The notes under the pieces: generated by a model
The model's input: the letters and a program-made list of their open reading frames with translations, nothing else
Databases searched by the model: none
Told to the model about the DNA's origin: nothing
Position numbers and translations under genes: made by a program
From: a virus
DNA: 16,611 nt
UHGV virus genome: UHGV-0310400
Direction: 5' to 3' (one strand)
Part shown: in pieces, positions 1 to 16,611 of the stretch
Position numbering within the stretch: the stretch's first letter is position 1
Layout of the letters: every line of letters begins with the position of its first letter

Positions 1-63
1 ACGGTTGATGAGGGCTTTATTGTAGGTGGGCCAGTTGGTGATTTTGAACTTTTGCTTTGCCAC
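1..63 (-). CDS. IS5-family (IS903-like) transposase, N-terminal fragment; partial, continues past the window start
   Basis: Minus-strand frame from a GTG at 63-61 translates as VAKQKFKITNWPTYNKALINR and stays open to position 1. This matches my recollection of the IS903 transposase N-terminus (..KQKFKITNW.TYNKALINRG..). Start codon choice is uncertain. Confidence 0.6.
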   Translation of the reverse strand, partial: MAKQKFKITNWPTYNKALINR

Positions 64-140
64 GGAACGGTCTGCGTTGTCGGGAAGATACGTGATCTGA
101 TCCTTCAACTCAGCAAAAGTTCGATTTATTCAACAAAGCC
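1..140 (-). mobile_element. Terminal segment of an IS903-group (IS5 family) insertion sequence; the element continues beyond the window start
   Basis: Minus-strand sequence reading inward from position 140 is GGCTTTGTTGAATAAATCGAACTTTTGCTGAGTTGAAGGATCAGATCACG..., which I recognise from memory as the IS903/Tn903 terminal inverted repeat and adjacent sequence, with a few substitutions. The outermost base of the inverted repeat is at 140. Not verified by alignment. Confidence 0.75.
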
Positions 141-1384
141 AAATCACCAGCAAATAATCCGTGATCAGTAATGCGAATATAAGCGACTTGCTGATTTGCT
201 GCTTTCGTTATACCACCATAAACGCGAAGGCTGCGACTCATTGGGCGATCCCACAACTCTGCAACCTGCAGTTTATTTCCTCTCACGGTCCGCGTCTCAA
301 TTACAGCAAAAAGGCGATTTCTGACAACCCCCATACTCATGCAGTGATAGTTAACTGTGGGATAGTTTTCATGTAAATCTGTAAGCCATTCCGGCGTTGT
401 CCAGGTCTTCCCGTCATCTCCTGAGCGAACCCATGCAACATGGAGGTTATTTACACCATGGCGGTCTCCAGCCATAAAAGGCGCATAGATGACATTGTCA
501 TATACAAACGTTTTATCCTGCGTCCAGGCGTTGTACCACGGTGTATCTGTAATTTTAAATAACTCTCCCTGGATAAAATCTTCAGAAGCATAAAAAAGAG
601 GCTGGCCCGGTATTCTCTCAAATAAAAAACGAGCATTTTTAAATCGACTGACATCCGGAAGAGTTGATACTTTAAAAGTAAGCCCTAATCCGTCAATTTT
701 ATAACCTGGAGATGAGGCTTCAAGGCACGCGCTTATTGCAGTGGAATCGTCATTTATACCATCACCAACAGCTCCAAAATCTTTGGGGCTAATAGCATCA
801 CGCATTTTATCCTGGAACGTTCGGTACACAGCCCCAGAACCATACTGAATAAACCAACCAAAACCACCAACAACTCCGGCGATTGCAGCATCGACATAAT
901 TACGCATTGAGCGATTATTTACAGCGTCCTGCTCAAATGATGGATCTGCAAGGTTAGAAATTTTGTTTTGCTTTGCATCGTAATATTTTGCAAGCAGAGA
1001 GGGCTTCATCAATGCACGTCTGAACCACCCAAAACATTGCTGGATCAGCATCGTCAGGTAGTCAAAGGCATCTTCATGCACTTCGGGGAAAAATTTTCCC
1101 TGATTGCGAAGGTCTGTGTCCTGCACTACATCAAGCACACGATCTATCGTAATTCGCCATCCAGTAGCAAGCGGAGACGGAAGAACCACAGAACCGCCAC
1201 TATAAGTGCCCGCCCCAGTTACCGTATAACCGGTATCCAGGACCAATTCTGTTACGTTCCCGTTCAGGTCAGACACCTGAACAACCAGGTCTGATTTTCT
1301 GAAAATTCGAAAAGTATACGGAAACGATGTCGTAACGCCGTTACCGGTGTATTCGTTGTGGTCAACTTCGGTTGAGACCGTCAT
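110..1384 (-). pseudogene. Tail fibre/tailspike gene (T7 gp17 position), 3' end truncated by IS insertion at 140/141; native sequence is 141-1384
   Basis: The 424-aa ORF has an N-terminal segment (EYTGNGVTTSFPYTF...VLDTGYTVTG...) resembling tail-attachment domains of podovirus fibres and tailspikes. It carries a DFGAVGDGINDDSTA motif (plus 758-781) typical of pectate-lyase-like beta-helix depolymerases, and an Asp-box-like SGDDGKTW (plus 401-424). The last 10 codons and the stop lie inside the IS inverted repeat (110-140). SD GGAG precedes the ATG at 1384. Confidence 0.6.
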
Positions 1385-1487: not shown

Positions 1488-1504
1488 ATTACCTTTCGGG
1501 TAAT
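1488..1504. promoter_or_regulatory. 17-bp dyad operator-like site, copy 1 (ATTACC-TTTCG-GGTAAT)
   Basis: Perfect 6-bp inverted half-sites separated by 5 bp, in the divergent intergenic region between the tail fibre gene and the 85-aa gene. Same half-sites recur at 2608, 2701 and 3768. Confidence 0.5.
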
Positions 1505-1540: not shown

Positions 1541-1560
1541 TACTGTATAAACATACAGTT
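1541..1560. promoter_or_regulatory. LexA (SOS) box
   Basis: TACTGTATAAACATACAGTT: CTGT (1543-1546), 8-nt AT-rich spacer, ACAG (1555-1558). Matches the enterobacterial LexA consensus TACTGT-N8-ACAGTA. Lies about 20 bp upstream of the SD/ATG of the 1580 gene. Confidence 0.7.
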
Positions 1561-1579
1561 ATTGCATGGAGAAGATAAG

Positions 1580-1837
1580 ATGCAGCAGTATCACTATCCA
1601 CTGGAAGACGGATTTACCGAAAGGATTCACACGCCGGGAGGCGTCAGGTCACTGGTGGAGGGATCGCACTTGATGAAATTACTCCGGGATCTCGATAAGG
1701 ATGGATTTAATGTCGATGGCCCACTTGCCGAACTGACTGCACTGATTAACTACGTCACCAGCTCACAGATGTCTATGCAGGATCTGCAAACACATCTCGA
1801 CTATTGTGCCGAACAATTACGAAAACAAACCCGGTAA
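1580..1837 (+). CDS. Small (85 aa) SOS-controlled antirepressor-like protein, paralogous to the C-terminal domain of the Bro-N antirepressor at 2986-3696
   Basis: ATG at 1580 is preceded by GGAGA (1568-1572). The track ORF from 1457 would run through the operator and LexA box, so the shorter start is preferred. Residues GVRSLVEGSHLMKLLRDLDKDGFNVDGPLAELTALINYV...DLQTHLDY align by eye with GVLGLTENSLLMNLLNQLQEDGHDVSGAAAELTTMFCYI...DIQTHAEY of the 2986 gene. Confidence 0.6.
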   Translation: MQQYHYPLEDGFTERIHTPGGVRSLVEGSHLMKLLRDLDKDGFNVDGPLAELTALINYVTSSQMSMQDLQTHLDYCAEQLRKQTR

Positions 1838-1844
1838 ATTTAAA

Positions 1845-1860
1845 GGCCGCAAGAGCGGCC
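1845..1860. terminator. Bidirectional intrinsic terminator hairpin between convergent genes
   Basis: GGCCGC-AAGA-GCGGCC perfect 6-bp GC stem, flanked by AAATTTAAA upstream and TATCGTTTCGCTTT downstream. Sits between the stop of the 1580-1837 plus gene and the stop of the 1860-2588 minus gene. Confidence 0.6.
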
Positions 1861-2588
1861 TATCGTTTCGCTTTGTGCTCGTCCCAGCACGTTTTGCACC
1901 ATGCCATTAAGCCGTCCGCATTTTGATTATTAGGGTAAAAGCTGGTCCGTTTTCTGCGGACATTACAAATTGGGCACCACTTCATATGGCGTGTATTCTT
2001 TGGGCCATCGAGGCACCTTGCACACCACTTAGTCAATCCATCTGGATTTTTTGACGATTTCCGGAATTTGTCATATGGAAGGTTTATTCTGCATCGCAAA
2101 CACTGCTTGCGGCCACTTGAAACTCTGTTAGCTGATTCTTCTTTTGGCGGCGATACAGAAGGTATTCTTGCTGGCTCTGATACTGCCTGAGGTGCTTTTT
2201 TAGATGACTGAGACGATATGTCATCACCAGGGAATCTTCCATGATATGCCGGACGCGTTGACACTCCAGGTGGAAGCTCAGCTGTAAACGGCTTTGGCTG
2301 AATCAGTTGCCTCTCTTTTGCTAACTCCTGCTGTTTATAATATGTCTGGATTACCGCACTATCATAAGCAGGAGGTACGGAAATATCAGGCGCGTTACCT
2401 CCAGTTTTTTGAAACTGAGTAGATGTGTGTTCTATCACCTGTGTACGACTAATCGTTACCTCCCCATCTTCGGTCTTTATCGTTTTGTTCTGATTAACGA
2501 CCGTACGATCAGAGATCTTAGTCTTGTTCTGGTTGATAACGTAAATAATCACCGCAACCACACCAACAACTATCCAGAAAACTTCCAT
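1860..2588 (-). CDS. Membrane-anchored protein with N-terminal TM helix, Pro/Ser-rich linker and C-terminal tandem Cys4 zinc-ribbon-like repeats; function unknown
   Basis: 242-aa ORF. N-terminus FWIVVGVVAVIIYVI is hydrophobic. C-terminus has two repeats, CLRC-x22-WCARC and CPIC-x23-WCKTC, each with DGL just before the second Cys pair. Stop codon abuts the terminator hairpin. Confidence 0.6.
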   Translation of the reverse strand: MEVFWIVVGVVAVIIYVINQNKTKISDRTVVNQNKTIKTEDGEVTISRTQVIEHTSTQFQKTGGNAPDISVPPAYDSAVIQTYYKQQELAKERQLIQPKPFTAELPPGVSTRPAYHGRFPGDDISSQSSKKAPQAVSEPARIPSVSPPKEESANRVSSGRKQCLRCRINLPYDKFRKSSKNPDGLTKWCARCLDGPKNTRHMKWCPICNVRRKRTSFYPNNQNADGLMAWCKTCWDEHKAKR

Positions 2589-2607
2589 TGCTTTTCCTCA
2601 CAATAAC

Positions 2608-2624
2608 ATTACCTTAAAGGTAAT
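2608..2624. promoter_or_regulatory. 17-bp dyad operator-like site, copy 2 (ATTACC-TTAAA-GGTAAT)
   Basis: Perfect palindrome about 20 bp upstream of the 242-aa gene start (2588, minus), in the divergent region shared with the antirepressor leader. Confidence 0.5.
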
Positions 2625-2700
2625 ATCTTGCTTTCAGGTGATCAAGCGTTAAACGCAATCAACCAAATACGGTTGATTTTAATATTTCTTCGCGTTTATC

Positions 2701-2717
2701 ATTACCTTTGCGGTAAA
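2701..2717. promoter_or_regulatory. 17-bp dyad operator-like site, copy 3 (ATTACC-TTTGC-GGTAAA)
   Basis: Same half-sites, one mismatch in the right half. Located at the start of the long leader upstream of the Bro-N antirepressor gene. Confidence 0.45.
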
Positions 2718-2751
2718 TTTACATCGCACTCCTCTTGTGCCATAGTAATCG

Positions 2752-2829
2752 GGCACTGGCAAAATCCAGTGCCGGGATTGGCGTCCCGGGTTACTAAGTG
2801 GCGCATACCACGCCAGACGTGGTTTTTTT
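2752..2829 (+). promoter_or_regulatory. Structured leader upstream of the antirepressor gene: overlapping hairpins ending in a terminator-like stem plus T7 tract; candidate attenuator or small RNA
   Basis: Hairpin GGCACTGG-caaaat-CCAGTGCC (2752-2773) overlaps hairpin CCGGGA-ttggcg-TCCCGG (2772-2789). Then CCACG-ccaga-CGTGG (2808-2822) is followed by TTTTTTT (2823-2829). An alternative pairing TGGCG (2798-2802) with CGCCA (2811-2815) competes with the terminator stem. Confidence 0.35.
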
Positions 2830-2985
2830 ATGCGTTAAGCACAGCTATATCCGAATTATGGTGGGCTGGGCAGGGGTCCGAAAGGACGCCGGTACCACTT
2901 AGGCCGGTACGCCAACCTTGTCCAGTTCACCACCAGTAATTGGCGTTGCGGTGGTGATTAAAATCACTAAGTGGAGATAACCACC

Positions 2986-3696
2986 ATGGCTAATGCTCAA
3001 ACTTCCATCTTCAAATTTGAATCTGTTAACCCTATCCGTTCCATCATTATCGATGGCCAACCATGGTTTGTAGCCCAAGACGTTTGTAGTGCGCTGCGTA
3101 TCCAAAACGTCACCCAAGCACTTGAAAAACTGGATGATGATGAAAGGTCTATGTTCAACATAGGGCATGAACATCGTGCAATTTTTGACAGCCGAGTAAA
3201 AGAGATCAACATCATCTCCGAGTCAGGCCTCTACACACTGATCCTCCGCTGCCGCGACGCAGTGACACCAGGCACTATCCCCTACCGCTTTCGTAAATGG
3301 GTTACAGGTGAGGTTCTTCCTCAGATCCGCCGCACCGGAAGCTACATTAAAAACTCGCTCCCGCAGGAAGAACGCATAAAGATGGTTGCCGACCAGGTAG
3401 CCAACGCCACGGCGTCAGCAGTAATGCAGGCGATGAAGATAGAGAACAAAACCTACAGCGCCCCACTGAAGCCCGGCTACCGTAGCCTGATTCATTCGCC
3501 GTCTGGTGTTCTCGGCCTGACGGAGAACTCACTGCTGATGAATTTGCTGAACCAGTTGCAGGAAGACGGGCACGATGTATCGGGCGCGGCGGCGGAGCTG
3601 ACAACCATGTTTTGCTACATCGTTGGTGTGAGTAAATGCCTGCGTGATATCCAGACTCACGCGGAGTACATCAACGACAAAGCAGGATTCTTCTGA
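2986..3696 (+). CDS. Phage antirepressor with N-terminal Bro-N domain
   Basis: ATG at 2986 is preceded by GGAGA (2973-2977); the track ORF from 2971 uses an upstream GTG. N-terminus IFKFESVNPIRSIIIDGQPWFVAQDVCSALRIQN matches the Bro-N signature (F.F....IR....DG.PWF.A.DV...LG). C-terminal approximately 70 aa are paralogous to the 1580-1837 product. Confidence 0.8.
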   Translation: MANAQTSIFKFESVNPIRSIIIDGQPWFVAQDVCSALRIQNVTQALEKLDDDERSMFNIGHEHRAIFDSRVKEINIISESGLYTLILRCRDAVTPGTIPYRFRKWVTGEVLPQIRRTGSYIKNSLPQEERIKMVADQVANATASAVMQAMKIENKTYSAPLKPGYRSLIHSPSGVLGLTENSLLMNLLNQLQEDGHDVSGAAAELTTMFCYIVGVSKCLRDIQTHAEYINDKAGFF

Positions 3697-3704
3697 CGGG
3701 CGGC

Positions 3705-3730
3705 GGCACAGGGATGTGCCTTTAAATAAT
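3705..3730 (+). terminator. Intrinsic terminator downstream of the antirepressor gene
   Basis: GGCACA-ggga-TGTGCC stem-loop (3705-3720) followed by TTTAAATAATT. Confidence 0.45.
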
Positions 3731-3740
3731 TCTGTACAGA

Positions 3741-3769
3741 TTGCAGACCGGGGGTGAATAGCGTACTAT
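3741..3769 (+). promoter_or_regulatory. Sigma70-like promoter for the 3810-5411 operon
   Basis: TTGCAG (3741-3746), 17-bp spacer, TACTAT (3764-3769). The -10 element overlaps operator copy 4. Confidence 0.45.
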
Positions 3770-3784
3770 TACCTTAAAGGTAAA
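3768..3784. promoter_or_regulatory. 17-bp dyad operator-like site, copy 4 (ATTACC-TTAAA-GGTAAA)
   Basis: Identical to copy 2 over 16 of 17 bp. Overlaps the -10 and predicted transcription start of the cargo operon promoter. A second small inverted repeat CATGT-gttt-ACATG (3786-3799) follows. Confidence 0.5.
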
Positions 3785-3809
3785 CCATGTGTTTACATGA
3801 GGAGGAGAT

Positions 3810-4019
3810 ATGGGATTTTGGTTCGCTCGTACAAAAACGAGGGATAATGCACCCAGCCCTCAGGCAAAAAATACAGAAGTTCCGGCGTCAGCGCAGGTTA
3901 ACAAGCGTGGTGGTGTGTATATCTCATCACAGCAAATTTCTGAGCTTCCTGAGGTTAAGGAGATGCGTCGTCTCGCTGCTGCAATCGTTAAACAGGATCT
4001 TGCCACTGTAAGGAAATAG
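3810..4019 (+). CDS. Small (69 aa) hypothetical protein, first gene of the cargo operon
   Basis: Strong SD AGGAGG (3800-3805) 4 nt before the ATG at 3810. Stop TAG overlaps the GTG start of the next gene (TAGTG). Preferred over the alternative-frame ORF 3787-4011, which lacks an RBS. Confidence 0.5.
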   Translation: MGFWFARTKTRDNAPSPQAKNTEVPASAQVNKRGGVYISSQQISELPEVKEMRRLAAAIVKQDLATVRK

Positions 4020-4882
4020 TGTTGTTAGCTCTTCTAATTATCCCCATTCTGGTTAGTGGTTATATTATGATAACCGCTAACCAGTATCATTATTTCCGTT
4101 TATACCGACATGAAGGCCAGCTTCTTTATATGAAAGTAGCTGCATTAGGTACATATTGCCTTGTTGCTTCTGTAATAATTGCCGCATTTATAAAATATAA
4201 ATATCCTGATTTTCACCTAGTTCACGATATGGTGGAAACTTTTAATGTAACGTCAAAACCAGAAACAGATAGAATTTACATGTGGCTACTTCTTCTGTCA
4301 GTCACATCAATTTGCTTCTCTTTGTGTTATGTATCTTTTGTTTGGCTAAAAGATCTTCTTTTAGGTTGTTTTTATAAACGTGATATTTATGACAAAATAT
4401 CAGAGGCAATGAAAGCTAGGGTATTGCGAAAAACGTACTCCCAGGGTTCTTTAGATTTGCTATTGCTTGATGCAATCGAATCAGATCCTAAGAAACCAAT
4501 GTTAATTACTTTATCATCAAATAAAGTATACGTTGGAATAATAAATGGTTCTGGTGAGCCAACGGAAAATCAAGGGCCACACCAACACATATCTTTTGTT
4601 CCTTTAATGTCAGGGTACAGAAACAAAGAAAATTTATCTGTTACATTTACAAACGCTTACCCAGGTGAAATCCAAATTAAGCGCAGTGCTGCGATAAAAG
4701 GGATAAGCAAAAAGAAAGTTCAAGGTCTAGAAATTATGGTATCTATAGACGAAATAAGTCATATATCATGGTTTGACTTTGAAGTATATAAGGCAACAAA
4801 TAACAAAGTAGAAACAAAGGGTCATGTTGTTAATGTGACCAAAAATGGTCGCAACATATACTACAGAAGTGGCAGGAAATAA
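4019..4882 (+). CDS. Multi-pass membrane protein (about 3 TM helices) with a soluble C-terminal domain of roughly 170 aa; AT-rich cargo gene of unknown function
   Basis: 287-aa ORF. Hydrophobic segments LLALLIIPILVSGYIMI, MKVAALGTYCLVASVIIAAFI and YMWLLLLSVTSICFSLCYVSFVWL. Base composition is visibly more AT-rich than the flanking virion genes. GTG start is coupled to the upstream stop; an internal ATG at 4067 is an alternative. Confidence 0.65.
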   Translation: MLLALLIIPILVSGYIMITANQYHYFRLYRHEGQLLYMKVAALGTYCLVASVIIAAFIKYKYPDFHLVHDMVETFNVTSKPETDRIYMWLLLLSVTSICFSLCYVSFVWLKDLLLGCFYKRDIYDKISEAMKARVLRKTYSQGSLDLLLLDAIESDPKKPMLITLSSNKVYVGIINGSGEPTENQGPHQHISFVPLMSGYRNKENLSVTFTNAYPGEIQIKRSAAIKGISKKKVQGLEIMVSIDEISHISWFDFEVYKATNNKVETKGHVVNVTKNGRNIYYRSGRK

Positions 4883-4907
4883 ATTTTACGCAGTTTAGGT
4901 GGCTTAT

Positions 4908-5411
4908 ATGGATAATACTATCTTAGGCGCATTGATAGGTGCTGTTATTGCTATAGTTTCCACTTATATAAATGCAGGACAAGGATACAAAAACAGCATA
5001 AGATTAGAGCGACAAAAAATATTAAGGGATAAACGCGAGCAATTATTTATAAATTGTATACTTACTAAAAAAGTCATAGATTCAAGCACAATTACCATTC
5101 TCAATTTCGTAAAAAATGCCAGATACCACTCTGATAGTAAATTTGACGTATCAAGAGCGAATCCGTTGCAAACGATGGAAATGCTAATAAACATATACCT
5201 TCCTGAGTATAAAAAAGACTTACAAGAACTCAATAATGCGTATCAAGAATTTCACAAATACTACTCTCAATATACATGTGCACATACCTTCAAAAATATG
5301 CCTGATAATGAGAAGTCGAGGTTTATTGAGGAGGCTGATTTTTATGCAAAAAAGATATATGGCAAACTTAATGATATTAAGGACAAGATATCATTAAACT
5401 CAATAGTATAA
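4908..5411 (+). CDS. Single-pass membrane protein (N-terminal TM helix plus soluble domain of about 140 aa); AT-rich cargo gene of unknown function
   Basis: ATG at 4908 with SD AGGTGG (4897-4902); the track ORF starts at an upstream GTG at 4899. N-terminus NTILGALIGAVIAIVSTYI is hydrophobic. Very AT-rich. Followed by a GC-rich palindrome and the terminator at 5496-5513. Confidence 0.6.
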   Translation: MDNTILGALIGAVIAIVSTYINAGQGYKNSIRLERQKILRDKREQLFINCILTKKVIDSSTITILNFVKNARYHSDSKFDVSRANPLQTMEMLINIYLPEYKKDLQELNNAYQEFHKYYSQYTCAHTFKNMPDNEKSRFIEEADFYAKKIYGKLNDIKDKISLNSIV

Positions 5412-5519: not shown

Positions 5520-6371
5520 TCACTGTGCAGTTTTCGCTGATCGATTTTCAGCTCTAAATTCAAGAACCGTTTCAATATTTCTTTCCTTCAGCATATCAAT
5601 AACATTTTTATTCATTTGACTATCACTGGTTAATAACTGGTAAACGTCGCTTCTCTCTTTATCAGAGTTTTCTTTAACAGCTGCTTTGCATGCCAAATGC
5701 TTATTGAAATTTTCTACATCGCTAGTACAGGAATTTACGGCTGCTGATGAAATATCAGACGCTGAAGAAACACCATCATCCAAACGTTTTATAGCATTTT
5801 CTATACATGAGTTAAGGGAATAAACGACAACTGAGCGATACCCTTCAGACGCACACCATTCTAAATTTCTTGAAGGATCGAGTGGTTTTACTTCGCTGGA
5901 TTGAATTAACTTGTCAAAAACTGACTTATATTCAATCTGTTTTTTATCTATAGCCCATACTTCAGTAGCTGATTTATAATTCCCCGTATGCCTATTAACA
6001 TCAAATCCATGTTTTATAAGCAAATCTGCCCATGAAAGATTTATTGATTCATTGTTATGAGGCCATTTTCCTGTCAGAACCGCCCCCATAGACCCCATAT
6101 ATCCGCCATATGATGGTATAGCACCATGGCTCAGTAACTTCTCAGCAACCACAGGGCAATTAATTACATAAGAGGCGTAAAGCCCATTCCATAAAGCCCC
6201 TCTATAGTAATCGCCACGATTAGGTTCTTTTAAGTCGATAGCCTTTGATAATTGTTCACACGTTTTGCATGCATCAAAGTTATCCTTATTGCATTGCAAT
6301 GAACTGGCAGCTGTAGGATTTACAGAGACTATTGAAAGCACTATGCCAAAAAACAAATTTATTTTTTTCAT
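5520..6371 (-). CDS. Secreted/periplasmic protein with cleavable signal peptide; AT-rich moron coupled to the last virion gene; function unknown
   Basis: 283-aa ORF. N-terminus MKKINLFFGIVLSIVSVNPTAASS is a classical Sec signal peptide. Multiple cysteines in the mature part. Start lies 2 nt from the stop of the 1129-aa gene. AT-rich relative to the virion genes. Confidence 0.65.
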   Translation of the reverse strand: MKKINLFFGIVLSIVSVNPTAASSLQCNKDNFDACKTCEQLSKAIDLKEPNRGDYYRGALWNGLYASYVINCPVVAEKLLSHGAIPSYGGYMGSMGAVLTGKWPHNNESINLSWADLLIKHGFDVNRHTGNYKSATEVWAIDKKQIEYKSVFDKLIQSSEVKPLDPSRNLEWCASEGYRSVVVYSLNSCIENAIKRLDDGVSSASDISSAAVNSCTSDVENFNKHLACKAAVKENSDKERSDVYQLLTSDSQMNKNVIDMLKERNIETVLEFRAENRSAKTAQ

Positions 6372-6372
6372 C

Positions 6373-9300
6373 CTATTTCATCTGCTCTTCAACTTTATTT
6401 AGTAATGGTGATATCGCCCACAGGTTCTGAAAAGGTAGCATTTTACGGACCGCGTGGGTTTGCTGGCTGTCAAATTCTCCGTTAAGTACACCATTCGCAA
6501 CCGTCGCGGCATCACCGCCAAGATCAAAGGTAGGACCAAGTAAAGCACCAATAGCATTACGACTCTGAAACCTTGATACCGGAGGCGCACCAAACATCGC
6601 GCCAAGACCAAACCTACCACCGCTTATGTTCTCAACGGTATTCAGCGGCTCAGAGAGCCAGCCAAGCATTCCGCCCCGGTCGATCCCCTCTTTCACAAGG
6701 TTATTCCAGCTGTAGTCAATATCGCGACCGCTTAACTTCTGTTTCATCATATAGACCATTGAGCCAAGCGCAATCGTGCCAAGCGCACCAAGATAGAATG
6801 CAGCATCGCCCTGCTGGATACCAGATACCAGCACCCTGTTATGCTGTGCGAAGATAAACGTTTTGAACTGCGTGATCATCTTCCAGCCTTCTTTACTAAA
6901 AAACAGCGGTGTATCACCTACGCCAGGCGTTACAATCACTGAGTCTACATCTTTCAGCACTGCAGACTGGAAAATCTCTCTAGCGAAACGGTCATCCCAC
7001 AGATGACTATGCCCGGTTAACAGCCCGTCCATATCCTCTCCGTGCTTCCCGAATTGCTCCCCGATTCGACGCAGAACATCTTCATTGATGCCGACCTGTG
7101 CCATCTTCCGCATTTCACTTTTGGAGAGCGTGCCACCAGCAGAAACTTGGCGAGCCGCGTCAAGTATCCTCGACTGCACTATCATCCCAGACCATGATTT
7201 AAGTGCGCTGTTCCACTGATTCATCAGCGTCCAGTTACCGAATTTCTGCGTCATCCAGTTCAGACCTCGCTCAGCGGCGCTTCTCCGGCTATAGGGGTCA
7301 GTAAGATCCGCTATAGCCTTTGTACGCGTAGACAGGACATAATCAAGCCCAACGGCCATTTCTCGCAAATCCCTGGTTGCAATTTTCACTGAGTCCATAT
7401 TTTTAAGCATGCTTACCATTGGTCCGAGAGATTTTCTCAGGCCATGCTGCATCATCGGTCGCATCAGATCAGTTGCAGCGGAGACAGTCATTCCACCAAG
7501 CAAACGGAGGAAGTTAATATTCCTAGCAACTCGCCCGGCACGAACAAAGAAACTGCGTGGATCTTGAGGTGCACCGTAAGTACCAAGCAGTCGATCACGC
7601 ATAGCCGTAATATCCCTAATATCAGCCTCCCGTTGCTTCTCAAGAACTGCACGTCGTTTAGGTGTTTTAGCCTCTTTTATTAGCCGGGTATATTCCTCAC
7701 TAACCTGACGGATTTGCTCCCCCATATCTTTACGGCCAAACTGCGCAGTCAGCTCAATTTCTGGTGCCACCTGCCGGAGATAACTTTCCATGATGTAGTT
7801 AACATCTGATTCAAGAAAATCTTCTATACGCTCATCAGGAATAAGCAGCGTTCTGCTTTTAGTGAAACCAGCCCGACCAACGAGTCTCTCTGGGATAATA
7901 TCGGCTGGTACAAGCCCGGAAGGTGCGCCTATTATTTTATTCACGATCTCGTCAGCAGCGTCCTCTGCTTCCTCTCGGGATAGAGGCTCCATCTGCTTCA
8001 GTGCTCGTTCGCGGCTTGCATTCAGCCTTGTGGTTGAATTTGCCCGTTTTTGCAGTCGGCGAAGCTCAGAACGATATTTCCGTGGATTATCCAGCAACTC
8101 CATATGGCGCTGATAGACAGGAAGCTCACTCTTTGCCTGCGCTATATCATCAAGGCGTGTTTTAAGGTCAGAGCTTTCTTTCATCATTCTTGCCTGAAGT
8201 TTTTCTGATGAAGTCTCGGCCAACTCTTTTTCTATTCTTGTAAGACGCGCCTGTGTGTCAGTCTCCTGAGATATAAGCTTATTTCGTTTATCCAGTTCTT
8301 CCATGAGTAGAATTTTTTTACCAGACCATTTCTCCGCTTCAGCGATTTCACTAGCGAGAGCATCAGCGCGCGGTGCCGATTCCTCTGCAGTTTTTAGCAA
8401 TGAATTTATCCTTTCAATTCGCTGACCTGCCTTGTCAGCACCTTTGGCACTAATCCCTTGTATCCAGTTGGCAATTCGCCCTCTGAATTCAGTGCGGTCG
8501 GAAAGTATCTTATCGAACTTATAAATGCGGGGAAGATAACTTTTCGCCGTCACGACATCGATATCCTCAGGAAGGATCCCCAGTTCCTGCATACGGGCTT
8601 TTGTGATCTCGAAAATGGGGCGGATTCTGGCGGCTGCTTGTGAAACCTCAGGAATATCACTCTGATCACCACGGCGCATGGCCATGCCAACAGCTTCATT
8701 GAAATCAATAAAGTTCATCCTCTTCACGCCGCGGGCGCTAACAGATTTGCTGTACTGCTGATAAGCATCACTAGTGGCTTCCATCTGCTTATAAAGCATG
8801 GCGTCGTATTGCTTAATCTTAGTCTCGACTGCCGTAAACGTAGCCAACCCCTCATCATTTTTGGCGAAGAAATAGTTATTTTCGGCAAGCTGCTGGTTAA
8901 TCTGACGGGAGACAAGAGATGGTGATTGCGCCAAGCGGCCAGCAGGAGTGACACTCAACGTTTTGTTAGCAAGTCCAAGTCCAGCGAGCTGTTCCTGATC
9001 GAGTGTGGTATTGAAAACCTGAGCTGCACCAATGCTTTGAGGAGAATCCATACCTCGCAAATGATTACCTACTGAGTTAACCACTGCCTCGCGCGCGCTA
9101 GGTCCAGCAAGTAGCTGTGCACCAGCACCAAGGATCCCACCAACGAGAGCATCAACAACAACGTTCGATACGCTCTCCATCGGTGAGCGAGCTTCCTGAG
9201 TGGCCTGTAATGCGGCTTCTGATACTCCCCCACCAGCAGCATTCGCCAGGGCAAAACGCCCTGCCGTCTCAGCAATACTTCCTCCACGCGCTACCGCCCC

Positions 9301-9762
9301 TACAGGGATGAACATTGCAGCCACATTAACCGGGTCTATCATTCCCATTGCTAAGCTTGAAATAGTACCAGCACCACCCATTTCAGATAGATATTCTCTA
9401 TCTGTTCTTTGCTTATCGATTCGATGTTTAATTGCCATTGTTTCTTCATGCGAACCGGAGTTGATAAACGAATCTGCAAAATCTTCATAGCCTTTAATAT
9501 CTGCTGCATCGTTATCAAATGGGTTATATCCTTCAACCCTGTCAAACTGACTGAAAGGAGCACTGGCAATAAAGCTACCCAGCGTGTTATCTATACGAAA
9601 TGCTGCTTGTCTAGACCTTTGAACGCGTTGATCACTGGTAAATGGGTTCACAGCAGAAAGCAAAGAAGGTGTTTCCATATAGAAATTACTGTCATCAGGT
9701 GCTGCTATTTGCTGAATATCCTCGCCAAGCAACTCTTTAGGATCCTGTTCATATATCGGCAT
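6373..9762 (-). CDS. Large internal virion/ejection protein (T7 gp16 position)
   Basis: 1129-aa ORF. Gly/Ala-rich hydrophobic N-terminal region (GGAGTISSLAMGMIDPVNVAAMFIPVGAVARGG...) and a central coiled-coil-like charged region (..EKELAETSSEKLQARMMKESSDLKTRLDDIAQAK..). Assigned by position and size in the gp11-to-gp16 series; no direct homology recognised. Confidence 0.55.
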   Translation of the reverse strand: MPIYEQDPKELLGEDIQQIAAPDDSNFYMETPSLLSAVNPFTSDQRVQRSRQAAFRIDNTLGSFIASAPFSQFDRVEGYNPFDNDAADIKGYEDFADSFINSGSHEETMAIKHRIDKQRTDREYLSEMGGAGTISSLAMGMIDPVNVAAMFIPVGAVARGGSIAETAGRFALANAAGGGVSEAALQATQEARSPMESVSNVVVDALVGGILGAGAQLLAGPSAREAVVNSVGNHLRGMDSPQSIGAAQVFNTTLDQEQLAGLGLANKTLSVTPAGRLAQSPSLVSRQINQQLAENNYFFAKNDEGLATFTAVETKIKQYDAMLYKQMEATSDAYQQYSKSVSARGVKRMNFIDFNEAVGMAMRRGDQSDIPEVSQAAARIRPIFEITKARMQELGILPEDIDVVTAKSYLPRIYKFDKILSDRTEFRGRIANWIQGISAKGADKAGQRIERINSLLKTAEESAPRADALASEIAEAEKWSGKKILLMEELDKRNKLISQETDTQARLTRIEKELAETSSEKLQARMMKESSDLKTRLDDIAQAKSELPVYQRHMELLDNPRKYRSELRRLQKRANSTTRLNASRERALKQMEPLSREEAEDAADEIVNKIIGAPSGLVPADIIPERLVGRAGFTKSRTLLIPDERIEDFLESDVNYIMESYLRQVAPEIELTAQFGRKDMGEQIRQVSEEYTRLIKEAKTPKRRAVLEKQREADIRDITAMRDRLLGTYGAPQDPRSFFVRAGRVARNINFLRLLGGMTVSAATDLMRPMMQHGLRKSLGPMVSMLKNMDSVKIATRDLREMAVGLDYVLSTRTKAIADLTDPYSRRSAAERGLNWMTQKFGNWTLMNQWNSALKSWSGMIVQSRILDAARQVSAGGTLSKSEMRKMAQVGINEDVLRRIGEQFGKHGEDMDGLLTGHSHLWDDRFAREIFQSAVLKDVDSVIVTPGVGDTPLFFSKEGWKMITQFKTFIFAQHNRVLVSGIQQGDAAFYLGALGTIALGSMVYMMKQKLSGRDIDYSWNNLVKEGIDRGGMLGWLSEPLNTVENISGGRFGLGAMFGAPPVSRFQSRNAIGALLGPTFDLGGDAATVANGVLNGEFDSQQTHAVRKMLPFQNLWAISPLLNKVEEQMK

Positions 9763-12509
9763 TATTTGCCCCCTGCGTATATATTGCTCGGAAGGTAATT
9801 GGCTGAACCATAACCGAATGGTTTGGTCAGATCTGGAGGAGTATATCCATCTTTATTGCTGAACTGCGGCAGCGGATTGCCTTCTCTCCGCACTCTAGCC
9901 TCATCAACACGCTGTTGCTGGAACTGAATGGTTTGCCTGTACATTGGAGATGTCAGCTGATCCGGCTTGAAACGAACAGGGAGACCATTTTCTCCAATAT
10001 AATTTCTCGGTTCTATCGCTCCGTTTGCGTCAGGCTGTAAAACCATAACAGCATAACTCCTATCCCTTGCCGTAAGGCCATCAGAAACAAGTATTAAGTC
10101 CGTATCACTGCGAGGACCGCCAAAGGATTTTGATTTAAGCTCGCGTTTTTCCTGCTCCCACTGCCCCTGTATCCAGTTACCAGCACCATTATTTACTCCG
10201 TACAATGCCTCAGGTGCATACTTCATAACCTCTGCTTTGCCATTAACCGTAGAAACTCCCCAAGTGGTTCTGATCATGGCATTGGTCATTTTCTCAGCCT
10301 GTTCTGCATCGCCACCTGTCTGTACAAAGTTAGCATCGTAAATTGTCTGGTAATCTCGCTGATAGGCCGCATTTGATTTTCCTGGATCGGTAATATCCGG
10401 AGACCACGAACCAAAGGAAGTCAGACTGCTGGCGTTATTTTGTGCAGCAGTTGCCCTCGCCGCGACATATTTTTTGTCTCGCATGGCAGTGGAAAGCATC
10501 TGTTTCATTCGGTCATCCTGTTGGAACACCTGGCTGTAAGCCATATCAACAGCCTTATCCTCCGGCACGCCAGCGCGGGAATAATCGTAAACCTTGCCGT
10601 AAAATGCCATCGTACTTTTATCAAGTGTTGCCGCTGCCGCCGGATTATTATCGAATAACTGACCGTAGAATTTTGCCATCGGGACAACCAGCGCAGGATC
10701 TCTTGATGTTGCTCCACTGTTAAGCATTGTTTTAACCTGAGTTGGTATCATGCCGCTTTTAGTTGTGACGGTGACCAGTGTATTGATGCTCTGCGGATCA
10801 GATATGGAAAACGAAGGCGCGATATCCTGCGCGAAATAACGGTCTACCGCTGCCTGATTGTTTTTGTCGTTCGGGTCCAGCGGGAAGTTATTTTGCATTG
10901 AAGACACGAACCTGTTTCTTCCCTGCTGAATCTCCCACTCCCTATCCATCTCTTTAAATTTGGCCTGCATTTTCTCCCAGCGTTGCTGGTTAGCTGCAAA
11001 TCCAGGAGCGTTTGGATCCTGTGGACGTAAACGTTCAAGAATGTCTTGTCGTCCTTCTGGAGTGAGGTCTTTAGCGGCACCAATGACACCTCCATATTGT
11101 ATCTGCGCCTGCATATCCTTCCACTTCATAGCGCCAATGCGCGGACCATTGGCCCGGATAAAATCGTCCTCAGAAGGTAACTGCTCAGGTTTCAATCCTT
11201 CATCAAGGGCTGAATATGCATCTTTAACTACGGTGCTAAGCTGGTCCGCATACTGCTGGCGGTACTGATTTCTCAGCTCATTAGCCTGCCTCAATGCCTG
11301 TATTTGCATTTGAGGGCTCATAGCATCAAATGCCGCATTGCCCGTATAACGCTTAGGTGAATCAAGGTTAGTTAGACCAAGGGCTGCCGAGATACCAGTT
11401 TCAAGCTGTTCGGTGCTATAAGGCATACTGCCATTTTCGTGTTTAATAATCCCAGCACATAAAGCAGCTAGTGTCTTTGGGTTAGAGATATCAAGCTGAT
11501 CATTCTCCCCAACACCAAGCTCACCACACAATGCCCTAATATAAGCATCAGTATTATTACCATCACTAGCCGGAGCATAACGATTAACAATCTCGCTAAC
11601 GGTGTCATAGCCTTGACGCTGGTAAGACAACATATTTTTACCCAACGCGCGGATTCCATGCTCAGGGGTAGCAAACGTTGCAAAACGTCCATCGCTACCG
11701 ATCTGACCTTCCCACGGGTTAGATTTGCTCGCTTCAATATTACCAGGATTATTATTACGTAAACCACGAGCATCCAATGAATTACCATGTGACATTGCAC
11801 GGCTCACACCGTCAAGATCCCCTGGCTCTCCATTAACCTGAAGAAACTCGTTGTATTTTTGAGCGATATTTCCTATCCATGCTTGCTGCCCCATTTGTTC
11901 CTTGAGCTGAGTTTTCTGCTGAACACGCCACTCATCAGGAAGCCCATGCGCATCAGCGTATTGATCAATAGATTCAAATCGCTGCTTGGCTAAATCGACA
12001 AATGCTTGGTTATCGCTATATAGCCCCGCAGACTGAGTGACAGCCAATGCATTTCCTGACAAATACGTTTGATCTTGGAATTGCTGAAACTGCCCAACTT
12101 CATATCGACGTGCCTGATTGTAATAAGACTGCATAGACTGCTGGAGTTGAAAGGATAATTTATTCCTTTCCTCACTTTCAGGAATTGAGCCTAATAATGC
12201 CTGAGCCCTTTCCTGCATATTTTTCATAACAGCGTCACTCTGACCAAGAGCGTTTTTACCCTGTTTAGAAATCAGCCCATTTTCTGGGTTGTTAATCTGG
12301 TCATCTGCAAATTGGTTAAATTGCAGTAACGCCTCCTGGGCCATAGCAACATTCGCTTTCTGCCTGGCTTCACCATATGCCACCGCATACTGATCTGCGA
12401 CATTCGCCAGCACCTGACCTGCTTGAGGAACATCGAAGGTTTGAAAACCACCGGTTTGCACACCACGACTTTGCACCTGGCGTCCGGATGTAGTAGGAAC
12501 AACAGGCAT
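9762..12509 (-). CDS. Internal virion/ejection protein (T7 gp15 position) with a conserved motif block that may be a cell-wall-active domain
   Basis: 915-aa ORF, start overlapping the upstream stop. Residues about 245-330 (plus 11520-11777) contain RGLRNNNPGNIEASKSNPWEGQ...GRFATFATPEHGIRA, which looks like a conserved enzymatic motif; the family is not identified with certainty. Confidence 0.55.
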   Translation of the reverse strand: MPVVPTTSGRQVQSRGVQTGGFQTFDVPQAGQVLANVADQYAVAYGEARQKANVAMAQEALLQFNQFADDQINNPENGLISKQGKNALGQSDAVMKNMQERAQALLGSIPESEERNKLSFQLQQSMQSYYNQARRYEVGQFQQFQDQTYLSGNALAVTQSAGLYSDNQAFVDLAKQRFESIDQYADAHGLPDEWRVQQKTQLKEQMGQQAWIGNIAQKYNEFLQVNGEPGDLDGVSRAMSHGNSLDARGLRNNNPGNIEASKSNPWEGQIGSDGRFATFATPEHGIRALGKNMLSYQRQGYDTVSEIVNRYAPASDGNNTDAYIRALCGELGVGENDQLDISNPKTLAALCAGIIKHENGSMPYSTEQLETGISAALGLTNLDSPKRYTGNAAFDAMSPQMQIQALRQANELRNQYRQQYADQLSTVVKDAYSALDEGLKPEQLPSEDDFIRANGPRIGAMKWKDMQAQIQYGGVIGAAKDLTPEGRQDILERLRPQDPNAPGFAANQQRWEKMQAKFKEMDREWEIQQGRNRFVSSMQNNFPLDPNDKNNQAAVDRYFAQDIAPSFSISDPQSINTLVTVTTKSGMIPTQVKTMLNSGATSRDPALVVPMAKFYGQLFDNNPAAAATLDKSTMAFYGKVYDYSRAGVPEDKAVDMAYSQVFQQDDRMKQMLSTAMRDKKYVAARATAAQNNASSLTSFGSWSPDITDPGKSNAAYQRDYQTIYDANFVQTGGDAEQAEKMTNAMIRTTWGVSTVNGKAEVMKYAPEALYGVNNGAGNWIQGQWEQEKRELKSKSFGGPRSDTDLILVSDGLTARDRSYAVMVLQPDANGAIEPRNYIGENGLPVRFKPDQLTSPMYRQTIQFQQQRVDEARVRREGNPLPQFSNKDGYTPPDLTKPFGYGSANYLPSNIYAGGK

Positions 12510-13084
12510 CAGTAACCTCCTATTTTGAATCGGGAGTCAGAATTCATAAAACCTGAGTTAGATAACATTGGCGTCCCACCACTAGATGTACTTCCTTTAG
12601 AGAACGGACTCCACGTCCCACCAAACATCTGGTACGCACCGTATGCCTTCAGAGGCGCAGTGAGCAATGTTGTTGCTGCTCCCACATTCCCCTGTTTACG
12701 GGCTGAACTGGCTTCTGCTTTATAGTTGGCAGCCTGAACCTGATAACCGTAAGCCTCGCGTTGCGCGTTATTCACCGTCGTCAGCGAATCAAGAGCGCCG
12801 AACTGAGCAGTGTCACCAAATATATCCAGCGCGTTACCTGTAGATAAATCAGCGCCGGTCGCCCCCATTGTCGCCGCCTGTGTACCAAGCCGCTGTCGGG
12901 TCTCTCTGCGCCGTTGCTCAGCTTCAGCGTTACCTCTGTTTATTGCATCATTTGCCTGAGCTGTGGCTATATCTGCGTTCGCTTCTGCAACCTTCGAGGC
13001 ATACTTTCCCTGTTGGTACTGGGTGTATGCCTGAATGCCACTCATGGCGAGCATTGCGCCACCAGCAATAACCGGATCGCACAT
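12509..13084 (-). CDS. Small virion protein (T7 gp14 position), Ala/Gly/Gln-rich
   Basis: 191-aa ORF, close to the size of T7 gp14 (196 aa), coupled to both neighbours. Low-complexity Ala/Gln/Gly-rich composition. Assignment by synteny only. Confidence 0.45.
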   Translation of the reverse strand: MCDPVIAGGAMLAMSGIQAYTQYQQGKYASKVAEANADIATAQANDAINRGNAEAEQRRRETRQRLGTQAATMGATGADLSTGNALDIFGDTAQFGALDSLTTVNNAQREAYGYQVQAANYKAEASSARKQGNVGAATTLLTAPLKAYGAYQMFGGTWSPFSKGSTSSGGTPMLSNSGFMNSDSRFKIGGY

Positions 13085-13548
13085 TATTTTCTCTCCATGT
13101 GAAATCTGTGGAAATTAAGACCAAGAGCACCATAAGGCGCGGCTTCTTCAAGCCTGAATCCAAGCCAGTGCAGCCATGCTTTGGCAACATGGTTTCGCTC
13201 GTCGACGTAGTTTTCCAGGCGCGGATAAACTGCCAGCATCTGCTGCAATACAGGGCGGCAGTGGCGAAGAAATGTCTTCTGATATTTTTCAATACGGCTG
13301 GTTCCTACCAGCCAGGGCGTACCATTGCCACCGATCATTGACGCCGGAGATACGCCAAACATGGTTACCAGTTCTCCGTTCGCGAACCCTGACCAGGCCA
13401 TAGTCGCAGTGCGCAGACCAACACGCAGCGCATCTTTGGTAGTCATCAGCGATACCGCATACAGTTCGTCAATATCAGCCTGACGAACATCCGGCAAAAT
13501 CATCTGAAGATGCTCTTCGGTAGCGGGAATAATTTGAACATCGATCAT
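13084..13548 (-). CDS. Small virion-associated protein (T7 gp13 position)
   Basis: 154-aa ORF, overlapping the stops and starts of both neighbours. Assignment by synteny only. Confidence 0.4.
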   Translation of the reverse strand: MIDVQIIPATEEHLQMILPDVRQADIDELYAVSLMTTKDALRVGLRTATMAWSGFANGELVTMFGVSPASMIGGNGTPWLVGTSRIEKYQKTFLRHCRPVLQQMLAVYPRLENYVDERNHVAKAWLHWLGFRLEEAAPYGALGLNFHRFHMERK

Positions 13549-16019
13549 CAGAATCCCCCAACAGTAAGGCGAGGAATAACGGCAAGAACAGACAGCGGCA
13601 ACGGGTCAAGCTGACGGATTTTTACACGTCCGTTTTTGCCCCAGTTACTGTCCAGTTTCACTTCTACTTTTCCGGTAGCATCATCAACAGGATCATCGTA
13701 GAACTCGAATTCACGCTGTGGATATTCGTACCATTTGCCGCCGGGCGTAGTCGCCCAGATGCCGCGACTGGCATTCACAACCAGAGTAACGGACGGGATC
13801 ACCTGTTTTTTGTCCAGCAGCGTTTCCTGTCCGTTAATGTTGATATCCAGTGTTTCGAATTCAGCAGTTATTGGCAGGCCGATGTGCACAACAGCCCCAG
13901 GTGATTCCAGCGTGACGGCACCTCCGGAAACCACTTTCTGTGGTTCCACGTTCGCATCAGAGAGAATGTTTACGGTCTGGCCTTCAAGATGAGACAGGCC
14001 TCCAAATGTCCGGCGCGCCATCTGCCAGTTCGTGGTGGCCACATTCCTGAGGGATGGCGGGACGTTCCTGTTAGCACGAACCACTACTGCGGTATTGCTG
14101 GTTACAGAAATAATGTCGCAACGTAATTCTTTTGACACTTCATCGCCAGTATCAGGATCAGTTCCGGTATAAGGGAACTGTAGTTGCGCACCGACATCAC
14201 TACTGGTGAAGTACGCACCACCAGAAACACTGATTGTATATTCCTCGCGGTAATCCCATTCGCCAGAACCACCAGTGATGATCATCGTTCTGTCAGACGT
14301 ATTTCTTCCATCATAGCTAAGGCCAGAATCAACAAAGAAAGCATCTTCATCGCTGGTAAATAAACGGCTGGACAGTCGCTCGATGTATCTCACTGTTTGC
14401 CCGTTAACGGTTCGGTTAACGACGAAATACACCGCATCTTCATTGCCTTCGCTGATACTGCATGTGCTTTCATATTTTCCGGTACTGGATTGTGGTGCCC
14501 ATGCAAAAACCTGCTGATCACGCAAATAGGTCATCACCAGTAATTTACCGTCATCACGAATGCAGAAGGCGCTGGAGTAAGGGACAATAGAGAAGCACCA
14601 GTCAACAATGCTGTGCTTCTGAAAAAGATGATTGGCAAGGATGGTCAGGTCGTTCCCCTGATAGCCGTCAACATCGAATGAGTAGGCCAGATCACGGACA
14701 ACACTGCCTTTCTCCTGGACGAACAGAGCAATATTCGCCACGGCAATTGGTGGGACATTGCTCGAGCCATTTGATCCCTGAGAGCTGAATGCAAATGATG
14801 ATGGGGTAAGCACTTTGTTCTGGTCGCCGGTGATGACGTACTCACCTCCGGAAGTCAGCGCCACCAGCGAACCGACATCAATCAGGTGGCGGATCTCATT
14901 AACCTGACGCCCGGCATAGGTGTAGATAATTCTGTCGTCATCCTGCGTAGGATTGCTTTTGCCAAAATCCTTATAATCCCCGGTACGGCTGACCCAGATA
15001 GTCTGAGGGAACGCAGTCGATGCGGCGAAGTAAAGACGTTGTTGATAATAAACAACAGTGCCAGGATAACCATTAACACTGTTCCAGGCATATTTAGCCC
15101 ATTTATAGCTGGCATTATCCTCGCCAACTACCTGCGAAGGGATATAGGAAATCACCTCGGCAGTTGCAGTAGTTCCATTTGCAGCAGTGATACGGGCAAT
15201 GCCAAAACCACTGTGCAGATATTCCCACTCAATGCCAGTATCATCATCACCGGATCCGCCCCAGCCATCCCATGATGTGCCTTCTGTATGCGAAGGGCGC
15301 AAAGTGCCTGTTTTGCCTACTGTAACGGCGCGATAGTAGTTACTGTCTGCACGGCGAATATCGCCAATTGACGTACTCTTACTGGTTTCCCATACCGGCA
15401 CAGAATCCACTGCAGGCTGTTCCAGATAGAACAATTTGCCTACCTGCTCCGCGCCAAAAATAGAGGCGCTTGCCGTTAACGTAATTGTCCCGGTGCTGGC
15501 GCTGGCATAAACCGTCACTGACTCGTCAATATTGATATCTTCAAATGGTCCGTTCTTCGTTACCACATCAACCAGTTGCCAGTTGTCATGCGCATAGCGA
15601 CGCAACTCTTTCGGCGGGTATGCCGGATGAACAAGCGTAAGCACGTCGGCGCTTTGCGTGAATTTAATTCGGAACAGATCGGCTTCAGTATATGGCGTGG
15701 CAATTTCATAAATAACATTGCTGCTGTTCAGCACCAACGCACCATCTTTGATAACGCGCATGTACTGGTGTCCGAACTCCAGAGCATAGGTCTGAACCGT
15801 CGAGAACTGGAACGGGATCAGGCGGCATTTCCGATTTGGGTATTTGGCGGCACCGACAAAACGCGTACCAGGTCGATTCTCAACGCCGCCATACTGCCGC
15901 ACGATAAAGTTATCGCACTTGCGCAATGCCACCTGGTACTTCGCCATGTCAATACGCCCGTACAACGACGGTCCAATCTCACCACCGGCAAAGCTGGGCT
16001 GGATCCAACTGATAGCCAT
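13548..16019 (-). CDS. Tail tubular protein B-like (T7 gp12 position)
   Basis: 823-aa ORF, comparable to T7 gp12 (794 aa), immediately downstream of the gp11-like gene with a TGATG stop/start overlap. Assignment by size and synteny. Confidence 0.55.
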   Translation of the reverse strand: MAISWIQPSFAGGEIGPSLYGRIDMAKYQVALRKCDNFIVRQYGGVENRPGTRFVGAAKYPNRKCRLIPFQFSTVQTYALEFGHQYMRVIKDGALVLNSSNVIYEIATPYTEADLFRIKFTQSADVLTLVHPAYPPKELRRYAHDNWQLVDVVTKNGPFEDINIDESVTVYASASTGTITLTASASIFGAEQVGKLFYLEQPAVDSVPVWETSKSTSIGDIRRADSNYYRAVTVGKTGTLRPSHTEGTSWDGWGGSGDDDTGIEWEYLHSGFGIARITAANGTTATAEVISYIPSQVVGEDNASYKWAKYAWNSVNGYPGTVVYYQQRLYFAASTAFPQTIWVSRTGDYKDFGKSNPTQDDDRIIYTYAGRQVNEIRHLIDVGSLVALTSGGEYVITGDQNKVLTPSSFAFSSQGSNGSSNVPPIAVANIALFVQEKGSVVRDLAYSFDVDGYQGNDLTILANHLFQKHSIVDWCFSIVPYSSAFCIRDDGKLLVMTYLRDQQVFAWAPQSSTGKYESTCSISEGNEDAVYFVVNRTVNGQTVRYIERLSSRLFTSDEDAFFVDSGLSYDGRNTSDRTMIITGGSGEWDYREEYTISVSGGAYFTSSDVGAQLQFPYTGTDPDTGDEVSKELRCDIISVTSNTAVVVRANRNVPPSLRNVATTNWQMARRTFGGLSHLEGQTVNILSDANVEPQKVVSGGAVTLESPGAVVHIGLPITAEFETLDININGQETLLDKKQVIPSVTLVVNASRGIWATTPGGKWYEYPQREFEFYDDPVDDATGKVEVKLDSNWGKNGRVKIRQLDPLPLSVLAVIPRLTVGGF

Positions 16020-16611
16020 CAGGACAACCTCGCAATGGTAAACTCGTCAACCGGTGGCTGTGGTTCCTGTGATTCATTCTGGCTATGCGAGCCAGCACTA
16101 AGAATCACGCGATTGTACATATTGAGAGCAAATGTACCGAGGTCTGCATTCCCAGTCAGCGCCATGTTAATAGCTGCCGCAAGACGCCAGGCCAACGCCT
16201 CCATAAAAATGGCATCAAACATGTTCACATCTGTAACGCGAGAGACATACTTGAGCCATGCCTGAGGCTGGTCTGTGTAGATCAACTTTCCTGTTCCGTT
16301 GGTGTCTGCACCAACTTCGTACTGAACGCGCATTGCTGCTGTTGGATTGCGTACACCAGGAAGCATAATTTCAGTAATGCGCAGACAATCTGACGGGTAC
16401 TGGTACGCATATTCCCAGTCAGGCGGTGGATTGCTCGTATCTGCAAGCGCCACGCGTTTGGTAGCAAAGTTCCAGTCAAAATCAGAAAGCACAGCATCAC
16501 GGCAGGCCTCAAAGTGCAGCGAACATTCCCCCGCTTCCTTGCTGGCTTCCGTCAGGCTGTTAATACTGCGGCTGTTGCCAATATTGGACAGCGCACGATT
16601 GCAGATCTCTA
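16019..16611 (-). CDS. Tail tubular protein A-like (T7 gp11 family), partial; N-terminus lies beyond the window end
   Basis: The frame stays open from the GTG at 16492 up to 16611. The upstream translation ..EICNRALSNIGNSRSINSLTEASKEAGE...AVLSDFDWNF resembles, from memory, the T7 gp11 N-terminal region (..VNDILASIGEPPVSTLEGD...RGWTFN). Confidence 0.6.
   Translation of the reverse strand, partial: EICNRALSNIGNSRSINSLTEASKEAGECSLHFEACRDAVLSDFDWNFATKRVALADTSNPPPDWEYAYQYPSDCLRITEIMLPGVRNPTAAMRVQYEVGADTNGTGKLIYTDQPQAWLKYVSRVTDVNMFDAIFMEALAWRLAAAINMALTGNADLGTFALNMYNRVILSAGSHSQNESQEPQPPVDEFTIARLS

Follow-up and report, generated by a model that had tools for sequence, protein, structure and literature searches.

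The 16,611-nucleotide stretch of virus genome UHGV-0310400 analysed here (the window) very probably carries the ant part of an epsilon15-like prophage, a module orthologous to the Ant/Rep/LexA switch of the Salmonella phage SPC32H. Its core is a gene for a small antirepressor with a putative LexA box directly upstream (Table 1), an arrangement for which the first-pass annotation of this region had proposed a LexA-repressed antirepressor that works without repressor autocleavage, and this proposal is supported both by the close identity of the encoded protein to SPC32H Ant and by the orthologous box. The mechanism, the structure and the genome position of such a module are already known from SPC32H (Kim & Ryu 2013; Kim et al. 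2016), and the case adds little new biology.

The ant gene and its LexA box

The 85-aa protein is homologous to SPC32H Ant over its full length (85 against 86 aa). In a phmmer search its residues 2-84 align with residues 3-85 of PDB chain 5d50_E, described as 'Anti-repressor protein' (E 4e-47, ~88% identity), while its PHROG match is phrog_450 (E 9e-48), and a tblastn search gave 88% identity to the SPC32H/SPC32N gene annotated in GenBank as 'ant: anti-repressor protein' and a perfect match (100%) to a gene without a name in phage vB_EcoP_ZX5. A Pfam scan returned no family above the cutoff, only a sub-threshold match to DUF724, and gave no match to the DinI family; Tum-type homology is likewise absent among the Pfam, PHROG and PDB matches, which consist only of phrog_450, phrog_15539, phrog_1760 and 5d50_E. 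Among 5426 complete E. coli genomes, 529 have the ant cassette, which is found in many phage records as well; RefSeq names the gene 'hypothetical protein' in those E. coli matches that were sampled. The open reading frame called in the first-pass annotation is a real gene, but its ATG lies at 1580 and not at 1581. A longer frame of 126 aa, beginning at an ATG at 1457, was considered and rejected: it would place both the LexA box and the ribosome-binding site (RBS) inside coding sequence, and this start is unsupported by the annotations of the orthologues or by the 86-aa crystallised chain, all of which begin at the equivalent of 1580.

Table 1. Features of the ant region and its surroundings in the window.
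Feature	Position	Strand	Remarks
IS903B (IS5-family), terminal 140 nt	1-140	.	inserted in the tailspike gene
Tailspike gene, endosialidase type, N-terminal part	110-1384	-	divergent from ant; native sequence stops at 141
Perfect palindrome ATTACC-N5-GGTAAT, putative Rep operator	1488-1504	.	ant-tailspike intergenic; 37 nt upstream of the LexA box
Weak -35-like TAGCAA	1522-1527	+	18-nt spacer to TATAAA; by eye only
LexA (SOS) box, putative	1541-1560	.	TACTGTATAAACATACAGTT; orthologous position occupied in 15 related loci
Candidate -10 TATAAA	1546-1551	+	within the left half of the LexA box; by eye only
RBS GGAG	1568-1571	+	8 nt before the ATG; invariant in the 11-phage alignment
ant, SPC32H-type antirepressor	1580-1837	+	85 aa plus stop
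GC-rich hairpin AGGCCGCTCTTGCGGCCT	1844-1861	.	after the ant stop, between convergent ant and the 242-aa gene
242-aa accessory gene	1860-2588	-	zinc-finger / endonuclease VII-like C-terminal matches; phrog_6762
Related ATTACC-N5-GGTAA(T/A) palindromes	2608-2624, 2701-2717, 3768-3784		accessory-island intergenic regions
isrK match	2753-2829	+	Rfam, 67.7 bits, above the gathering score
C4 antisense RNA match	2854-2937	+	Rfam, 66.0 bits, above the gathering score; directly upstream of the Bro-N/Ant-domain gene
Bro-N/Ant-domain gene	2986-3696	+	Pfam Bro-N, N-terminal; phrog_130; phrog_450 on residues 158-239

No CTGT-N8-ACAG site other than the box itself occurs in the 16.6 kb of the window, where 0.20 would be expected by chance. 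Compared with the E. coli LexA consensus of 20 nt, TACTGTATATATATACAGTA, the box has three mismatches (box positions 10, 12 and 20), none of them within the CTGT/ACAG cores, and no other site in the window comes within three mismatches of that consensus; such a site appeared in 0 of 200 shuffled sequences. These results bear out the near-consensus LexA box that had been noticed at first pass, although the distance then given, about 20 bp upstream of the RBS, holds for the box centre only, as the end of the box stands 7 nt before GGAG and 19 nt before the ATG. From this agreement in sequence we infer a working operator, to which LexA would bind.

How the box has fared among relatives can be followed in the intergenic region between ant and the tailspike gene. 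All relatives examined have ant and the tailspike gene in divergent orientation, a synteny found in the phages SPC32H, epsilon15 (gp19/gp20), phiV10 (p24/p25), TL-2011b, Tyrion and BUCT554 and three Klebsiella phages, as well as in five E. coli prophages; the window shares it, being itself an epsilon15-like podovirus genome with ant divergent from the tailspike gene. The intergenic alignment covers 11 phages, and the box site was extracted from 15 loci whose Ant proteins range in identity from 59 to 100%. A LexA-type site is present in all 15, at a constant distance from GGAG and ATG, and the box of the window, directly upstream of ant, aligns column for column with that of SPC32H. The two half-sites are invariant apart from the Klebsiella phages, which have ATGT on the left, and SPC32N, which has AAAG on the right through a C-to-A change in ACAG, whereas the 8-nt spacer drifts (ATAAACAT, ATAAATAT, ATAAATAC, ATATTTAT, GTATTTAT, ATGTTTAT, ATAAGCAT, ACATATAT and ATATATAT). 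Judged from these alignments, the box is under selection.

The SPC32N change has its counterpart in the window at the C at 1556, and it is one of only two differences between SPC32H and SPC32N in the 1449 nt compared. The two phages reportedly differ by two nucleotides, the change in the LexA site being said to make Ant synthesis constitutive, and the sequence difference found in the box agrees with this account of 2013.

Two further observations concern the LexA-like sites of this group. Read relative to ant, the 16-nt core of the box at 1543-1558 (CTGTATAAACATACAG) equals, letter for letter, the reverse complement of the core at 19958-19973 in SPC32H (CTGTATGTTTATACAG), and it appears either that the LexA site was flipped between the lineages or that the spacer drifted to the mirror sequence. 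The CUVET20-PYO2 prophage also has a second, weaker LexA-like site at 37303-37322 (TGCTGTAAACCAGTACAGCC), located between a phage tRNA-Arg gene and a 140-aa hypothetical gene, and SPC32H has no LexA-like site at the matching place.

As the RBS lies only 7 nt past the box, transcription of ant should start within or upstream of the box, which must then overlap or abut the ant promoter, the position of the latter being one that we infer. A simple scan for the sigma-70 consensus gave no promoter on the plus strand around the box, and the candidate elements listed in Table 1 were picked out by eye. In SPC32H the LexA box reportedly overlaps the ant promoter, and an overlap of this kind would mean that LexA keeps ant silent. 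Downstream, the hairpin that follows the gene is a probable bidirectional terminator; the terminator scan scored it on the minus strand, its plus-strand T-run falling under the scan threshold.

Prophage setting, repressor and putative operators

At the DNA level the window is 95-99% identical to Uetakevirus genomes, which are epsilon15-like podoviruses (phiV10, TL-2011b, EC.W1-9, ZX5 and PAS61), and among E. coli prophages it is matched best by CUVET20-PYO2, with 90% of the window covered at 99.5% identity. The window is an epsilon15-like (Uetakevirus) E. coli prophage. On one side of ant lies the divergent tailspike gene, and on the other an accessory island of ~3.6 kb (1860-5411), followed by large virion and ejection-protein genes on the minus strand (5520-16492). 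That ant is embedded between tail genes, as the earlier description had it, is broadly correct, in that the divergent tailspike gene is indeed its neighbour, but the other flank is the accessory island. Its placement far from any immunity region also stands, the gene being tailspike-adjacent and away from immunity, but not as an anomaly, as this is the usual, conserved place of ant in the genus. Besides the 242-aa gene (Table 1), the island has an accessory pair on the plus strand in 4019-5411, encoding proteins of 287 aa (phrog_3630) and 170 aa (phrog_36918), where the closest relative has smaller genes. PADLOC matched none of the accessory genes at 1860-2588, 3787-4011, 4019-4882, 4899-5411 and 5520-6371 to a defence system.

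The tailspike gene is interrupted. Nucleotides 1-140 are 100% identical to IS903B copies on thousands of plasmids and the match to the CUVET20-PYO2 relative begins at 141, which puts the IS903B junction at 140/141 and cuts the tailspike after ~414 native codons. The prophage is probably tail-defective, and induction of the IS903B-disrupted prophage may yield no infectious particles. According to its annotation, the full-length tailspike gene of the closest relative (3119 nt) also has a defect, a frameshift.

The rep gene is absent from the 16.6-kb window. The CUVET20-PYO2 prophage encodes a 194-aa Rep homologue (46649-47233), which matches PDB chain 5d50_A, 'Repressor' (E 4e-42) and is 42% identical to the Rep of SPC32H (33739-34335); the accession of the phiV10-type Rep is WP_000836290.1. 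A Pfam scan of the 194-aa protein found HTH domains only and no Peptidase_S24, and the lack of an S24 domain fits a repressor that does not cleave itself. In SPC32H, ant (SPC32H_020) is next to tsp (SPC32H_021) and rep (SPC32H_041) is ~14 kb off. Across the phage collection, 35 records have an Ant homologue and 37 a Rep homologue, and these are largely one set; the E. coli phage records with Ant at an identity of at least 97.6% all carry the Rep of the CUVET20-PYO2 prophage at an identity of at least 98.5%. By analogy with SPC32H, we assume that the Ant-Rep interaction has been kept in the E. coli lineage.

Putative sites for Rep can be recognized by a palindrome, ATTACC-N5-GGTAAT, of which there are 12 copies in SPC32H and 12 in the E. 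coli relative, with fewer than 0.2 expected. In both genomes the motif stands on either side of rep, and the epsilon15 record annotates the orthologous palindrome as 'protein_bind repressor / lysogeny'. The motif appears to be conserved despite a Rep identity of only 42%. With one perfect copy upstream of the LexA box (Table 1), the ant-tailspike intergenic region of the window probably holds a LexA site and a Rep site together.

A second Ant-domain gene and related antirepressors

Within the accessory island, between putative Rep operators, sits a larger gene with a Bro-N and an Ant domain (Table 1). The C-terminal ~80 aa of its product are 42% identical to the 85-aa Ant (E 9e-16), and the protein matches PDB 5d50_E with E 1.2e-13; its start codon was set from a RefSeq relative together with an RBS, GGAG, at 2973-2976. 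Rfam matches to isrK and to the C4 antisense RNA precede the gene, and the loop of the C4 match, CCACUUAGG, has two complementary stretches, 2794-2801 and CUAAGUGG at 2966-2973, the latter overlapping that RBS. In phage P1 the ant gene of immI sits behind C4 antisense RNA control, and from its sequence the segment 2753-3696 resembles immI of P1 and looks to encode a second antirepressor under RNA control. The prophage carries two Ant-domain proteins, each behind an apparent control element of its own, a LexA box for one and the isrK and C4 RNA matches for the other, and we suggest, tentatively and with more doubt than confidence, that both act on Rep, the small Ant maybe also across immunity types. 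Should Rep be the target of both, SOS induction and an anti-immunity input governed by RNA would be brought together in one switch.

Of the antirepressors already described, that of SPC32H (Kim & Ryu 2013, J Virol 87:11775; Kim et al. 2016, PNAS 113:E2480; PDB 5D50, 5D4Z) is the closest. The two systems have in common an orthologous small Ant, a Uetakevirus genome, an ant gene divergent from the tailspike gene, the distance of the box from RBS and ATG, and the ATTACC-N5-GGTAAT motif, and prophages near-identical to the window encode an HTH Rep without S24 as well. They differ in host (Salmonella for SPC32H, E. coli here) and in their Reps, which share the low identity given above, and SPC32H has no accessory island beside ant, whereas the E. 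coli relatives have one that includes the Bro-N/Ant-domain gene behind the isrK and C4 matches.

The precedents first named for the window, Tum (Shearwin 1998) and the Gifsy and Fels antirepressors (Lemire 2011), are apt as functional analogues but are not its closest ones, a place taken by SPC32H Ant with its ~88% identity. No sequence relationship of the 85-aa Ant to Tum or to Gifsy GfoA-GftA was detected, so that the likeness is functional only, and the genome position differs too. SPC32H Ant is also said to be structurally distinct from the antirepressors of siphoviruses and myoviruses. The logic is nevertheless the same, since Tum of phage 186 and the antirepressors of Gifsy-1/-3 and Fels-2 are LexA-repressed small proteins that, on SOS induction, inactivate a non-cleavable repressor non-covalently (PMC7380047).

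There is a likeness, too, to the large Ant proteins of the P22/P1 type, in which a Bro-N or KilA-N domain is joined to an antirepressor domain: the 85-aa Ant is homologous to the C-terminal domain both of the neighbouring Bro-N protein and of PHROG 'anti-repressor' families. Unlike them, the 85-aa protein is a stand-alone domain with a LexA box upstream and with neither Mnt/Arc nor antisense RNA control, and it is the neighbouring Bro-N gene, placed behind a C4 antisense RNA match, that resembles P1 in its arrangement.

The proposed switch and its alternatives

In the lysogen, host LexA would occupy the box and keep ant, a single-gene unit, silent. DNA damage would activate RecA and lead LexA to cleave itself, so that the 85-aa Ant would be made, an SOS control to which the conserved half-sites and the SPC32N change point indirectly. 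Ant would then bind the prophage repressor Rep and free the operators of it; on the model of SPC32H, an Ant tetramer would do so by breaking up the DNA-binding tetramer of Rep into dimers. With Rep removed, the lytic genes would be expressed, Rep being in this scheme an HTH protein that lacks an S24 autocleavage domain. Both halves of this sequence of events have published counterparts, as one source describes LexA self-cleavage followed by the production of Ant and inhibition of the repressor through protein-protein interaction (PMC7380047), and another describes, for SPC32H, the disassembly of the Rep tetramer by Ant and the crystal complex of the two, 5D50 (PMC9638917).

Other readings of the same region start from the protein, from the state of the prophage or from the box. 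From the E. coli to the Salmonella lineage, Ant keeps 88% identity and Rep only 42% (in Enterobacter phage Tyrion the figures are 85.5% for Ant and 78% for Rep), and divergence so unequal is a hint that a conserved surface of Rep is recognised by Ant or that Ant can act across immunity types. On these grounds the module could be intact and yet its Ant be mainly a broad-range protein acting in trans, which cross-induces heteroimmune epsilon15-like or other prophages besides or instead of its own, much as trans-acting LexA-controlled antirepressors are documented for Gifsy and Fels-2 prophages (PMC3121763; PMC7380047). We think this rather unlikely, as the Ant and Rep homologues occur in largely one set of phage records, which fits pairing in cis, and no second repressor of the epsilon15 type was seen.

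Less likely again is that the module is a relic of a decaying prophage, with the LexA box and ant persisting although induction would be unproductive, or with ant now serving the host as an SOS-induced gene. The IS903B insertion in the tailspike gene, the annotated frameshift in the tailspike of the closest relative and the lack of rep in the window would all suit such decay, but the relative has the ant cassette at 100% identity, as vB_EcoP_ZX5 has its protein, the rest of the window is 97-99% identical to phage genomes and keeps its large ORFs intact, and the switch itself is unaffected by a broken tailspike. As for the box, the palindrome might be no LexA operator at all, with ant controlled instead by Rep through the ATTACC-N5-GGTAAT motif, or with the protein having another function such as that of a DinI-like SOS modulator. 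The putative Rep operator only 37 nt upstream and the want of a Pfam family for the 85-aa protein would allow this, yet we hold it to be highly improbable given half-sites that stay invariant over the 15 loci, with the exceptions noted, while the spacer drifts, the SPC32N change inside the box, the 88% identity to a protein crystallised bound to Rep and the absence of any match to DinI or another Pfam family above the cutoff.

Read as the ant part of an SPC32H-type switch, the module is chiefly of value for annotation, in that a common 'hypothetical protein' of E. coli would be the probable SOS trigger of these prophages. It also bears on predicting the induction of such prophages by antibiotics and DNA damage, including that of the EHEC relatives TL-2011b and phiV10.
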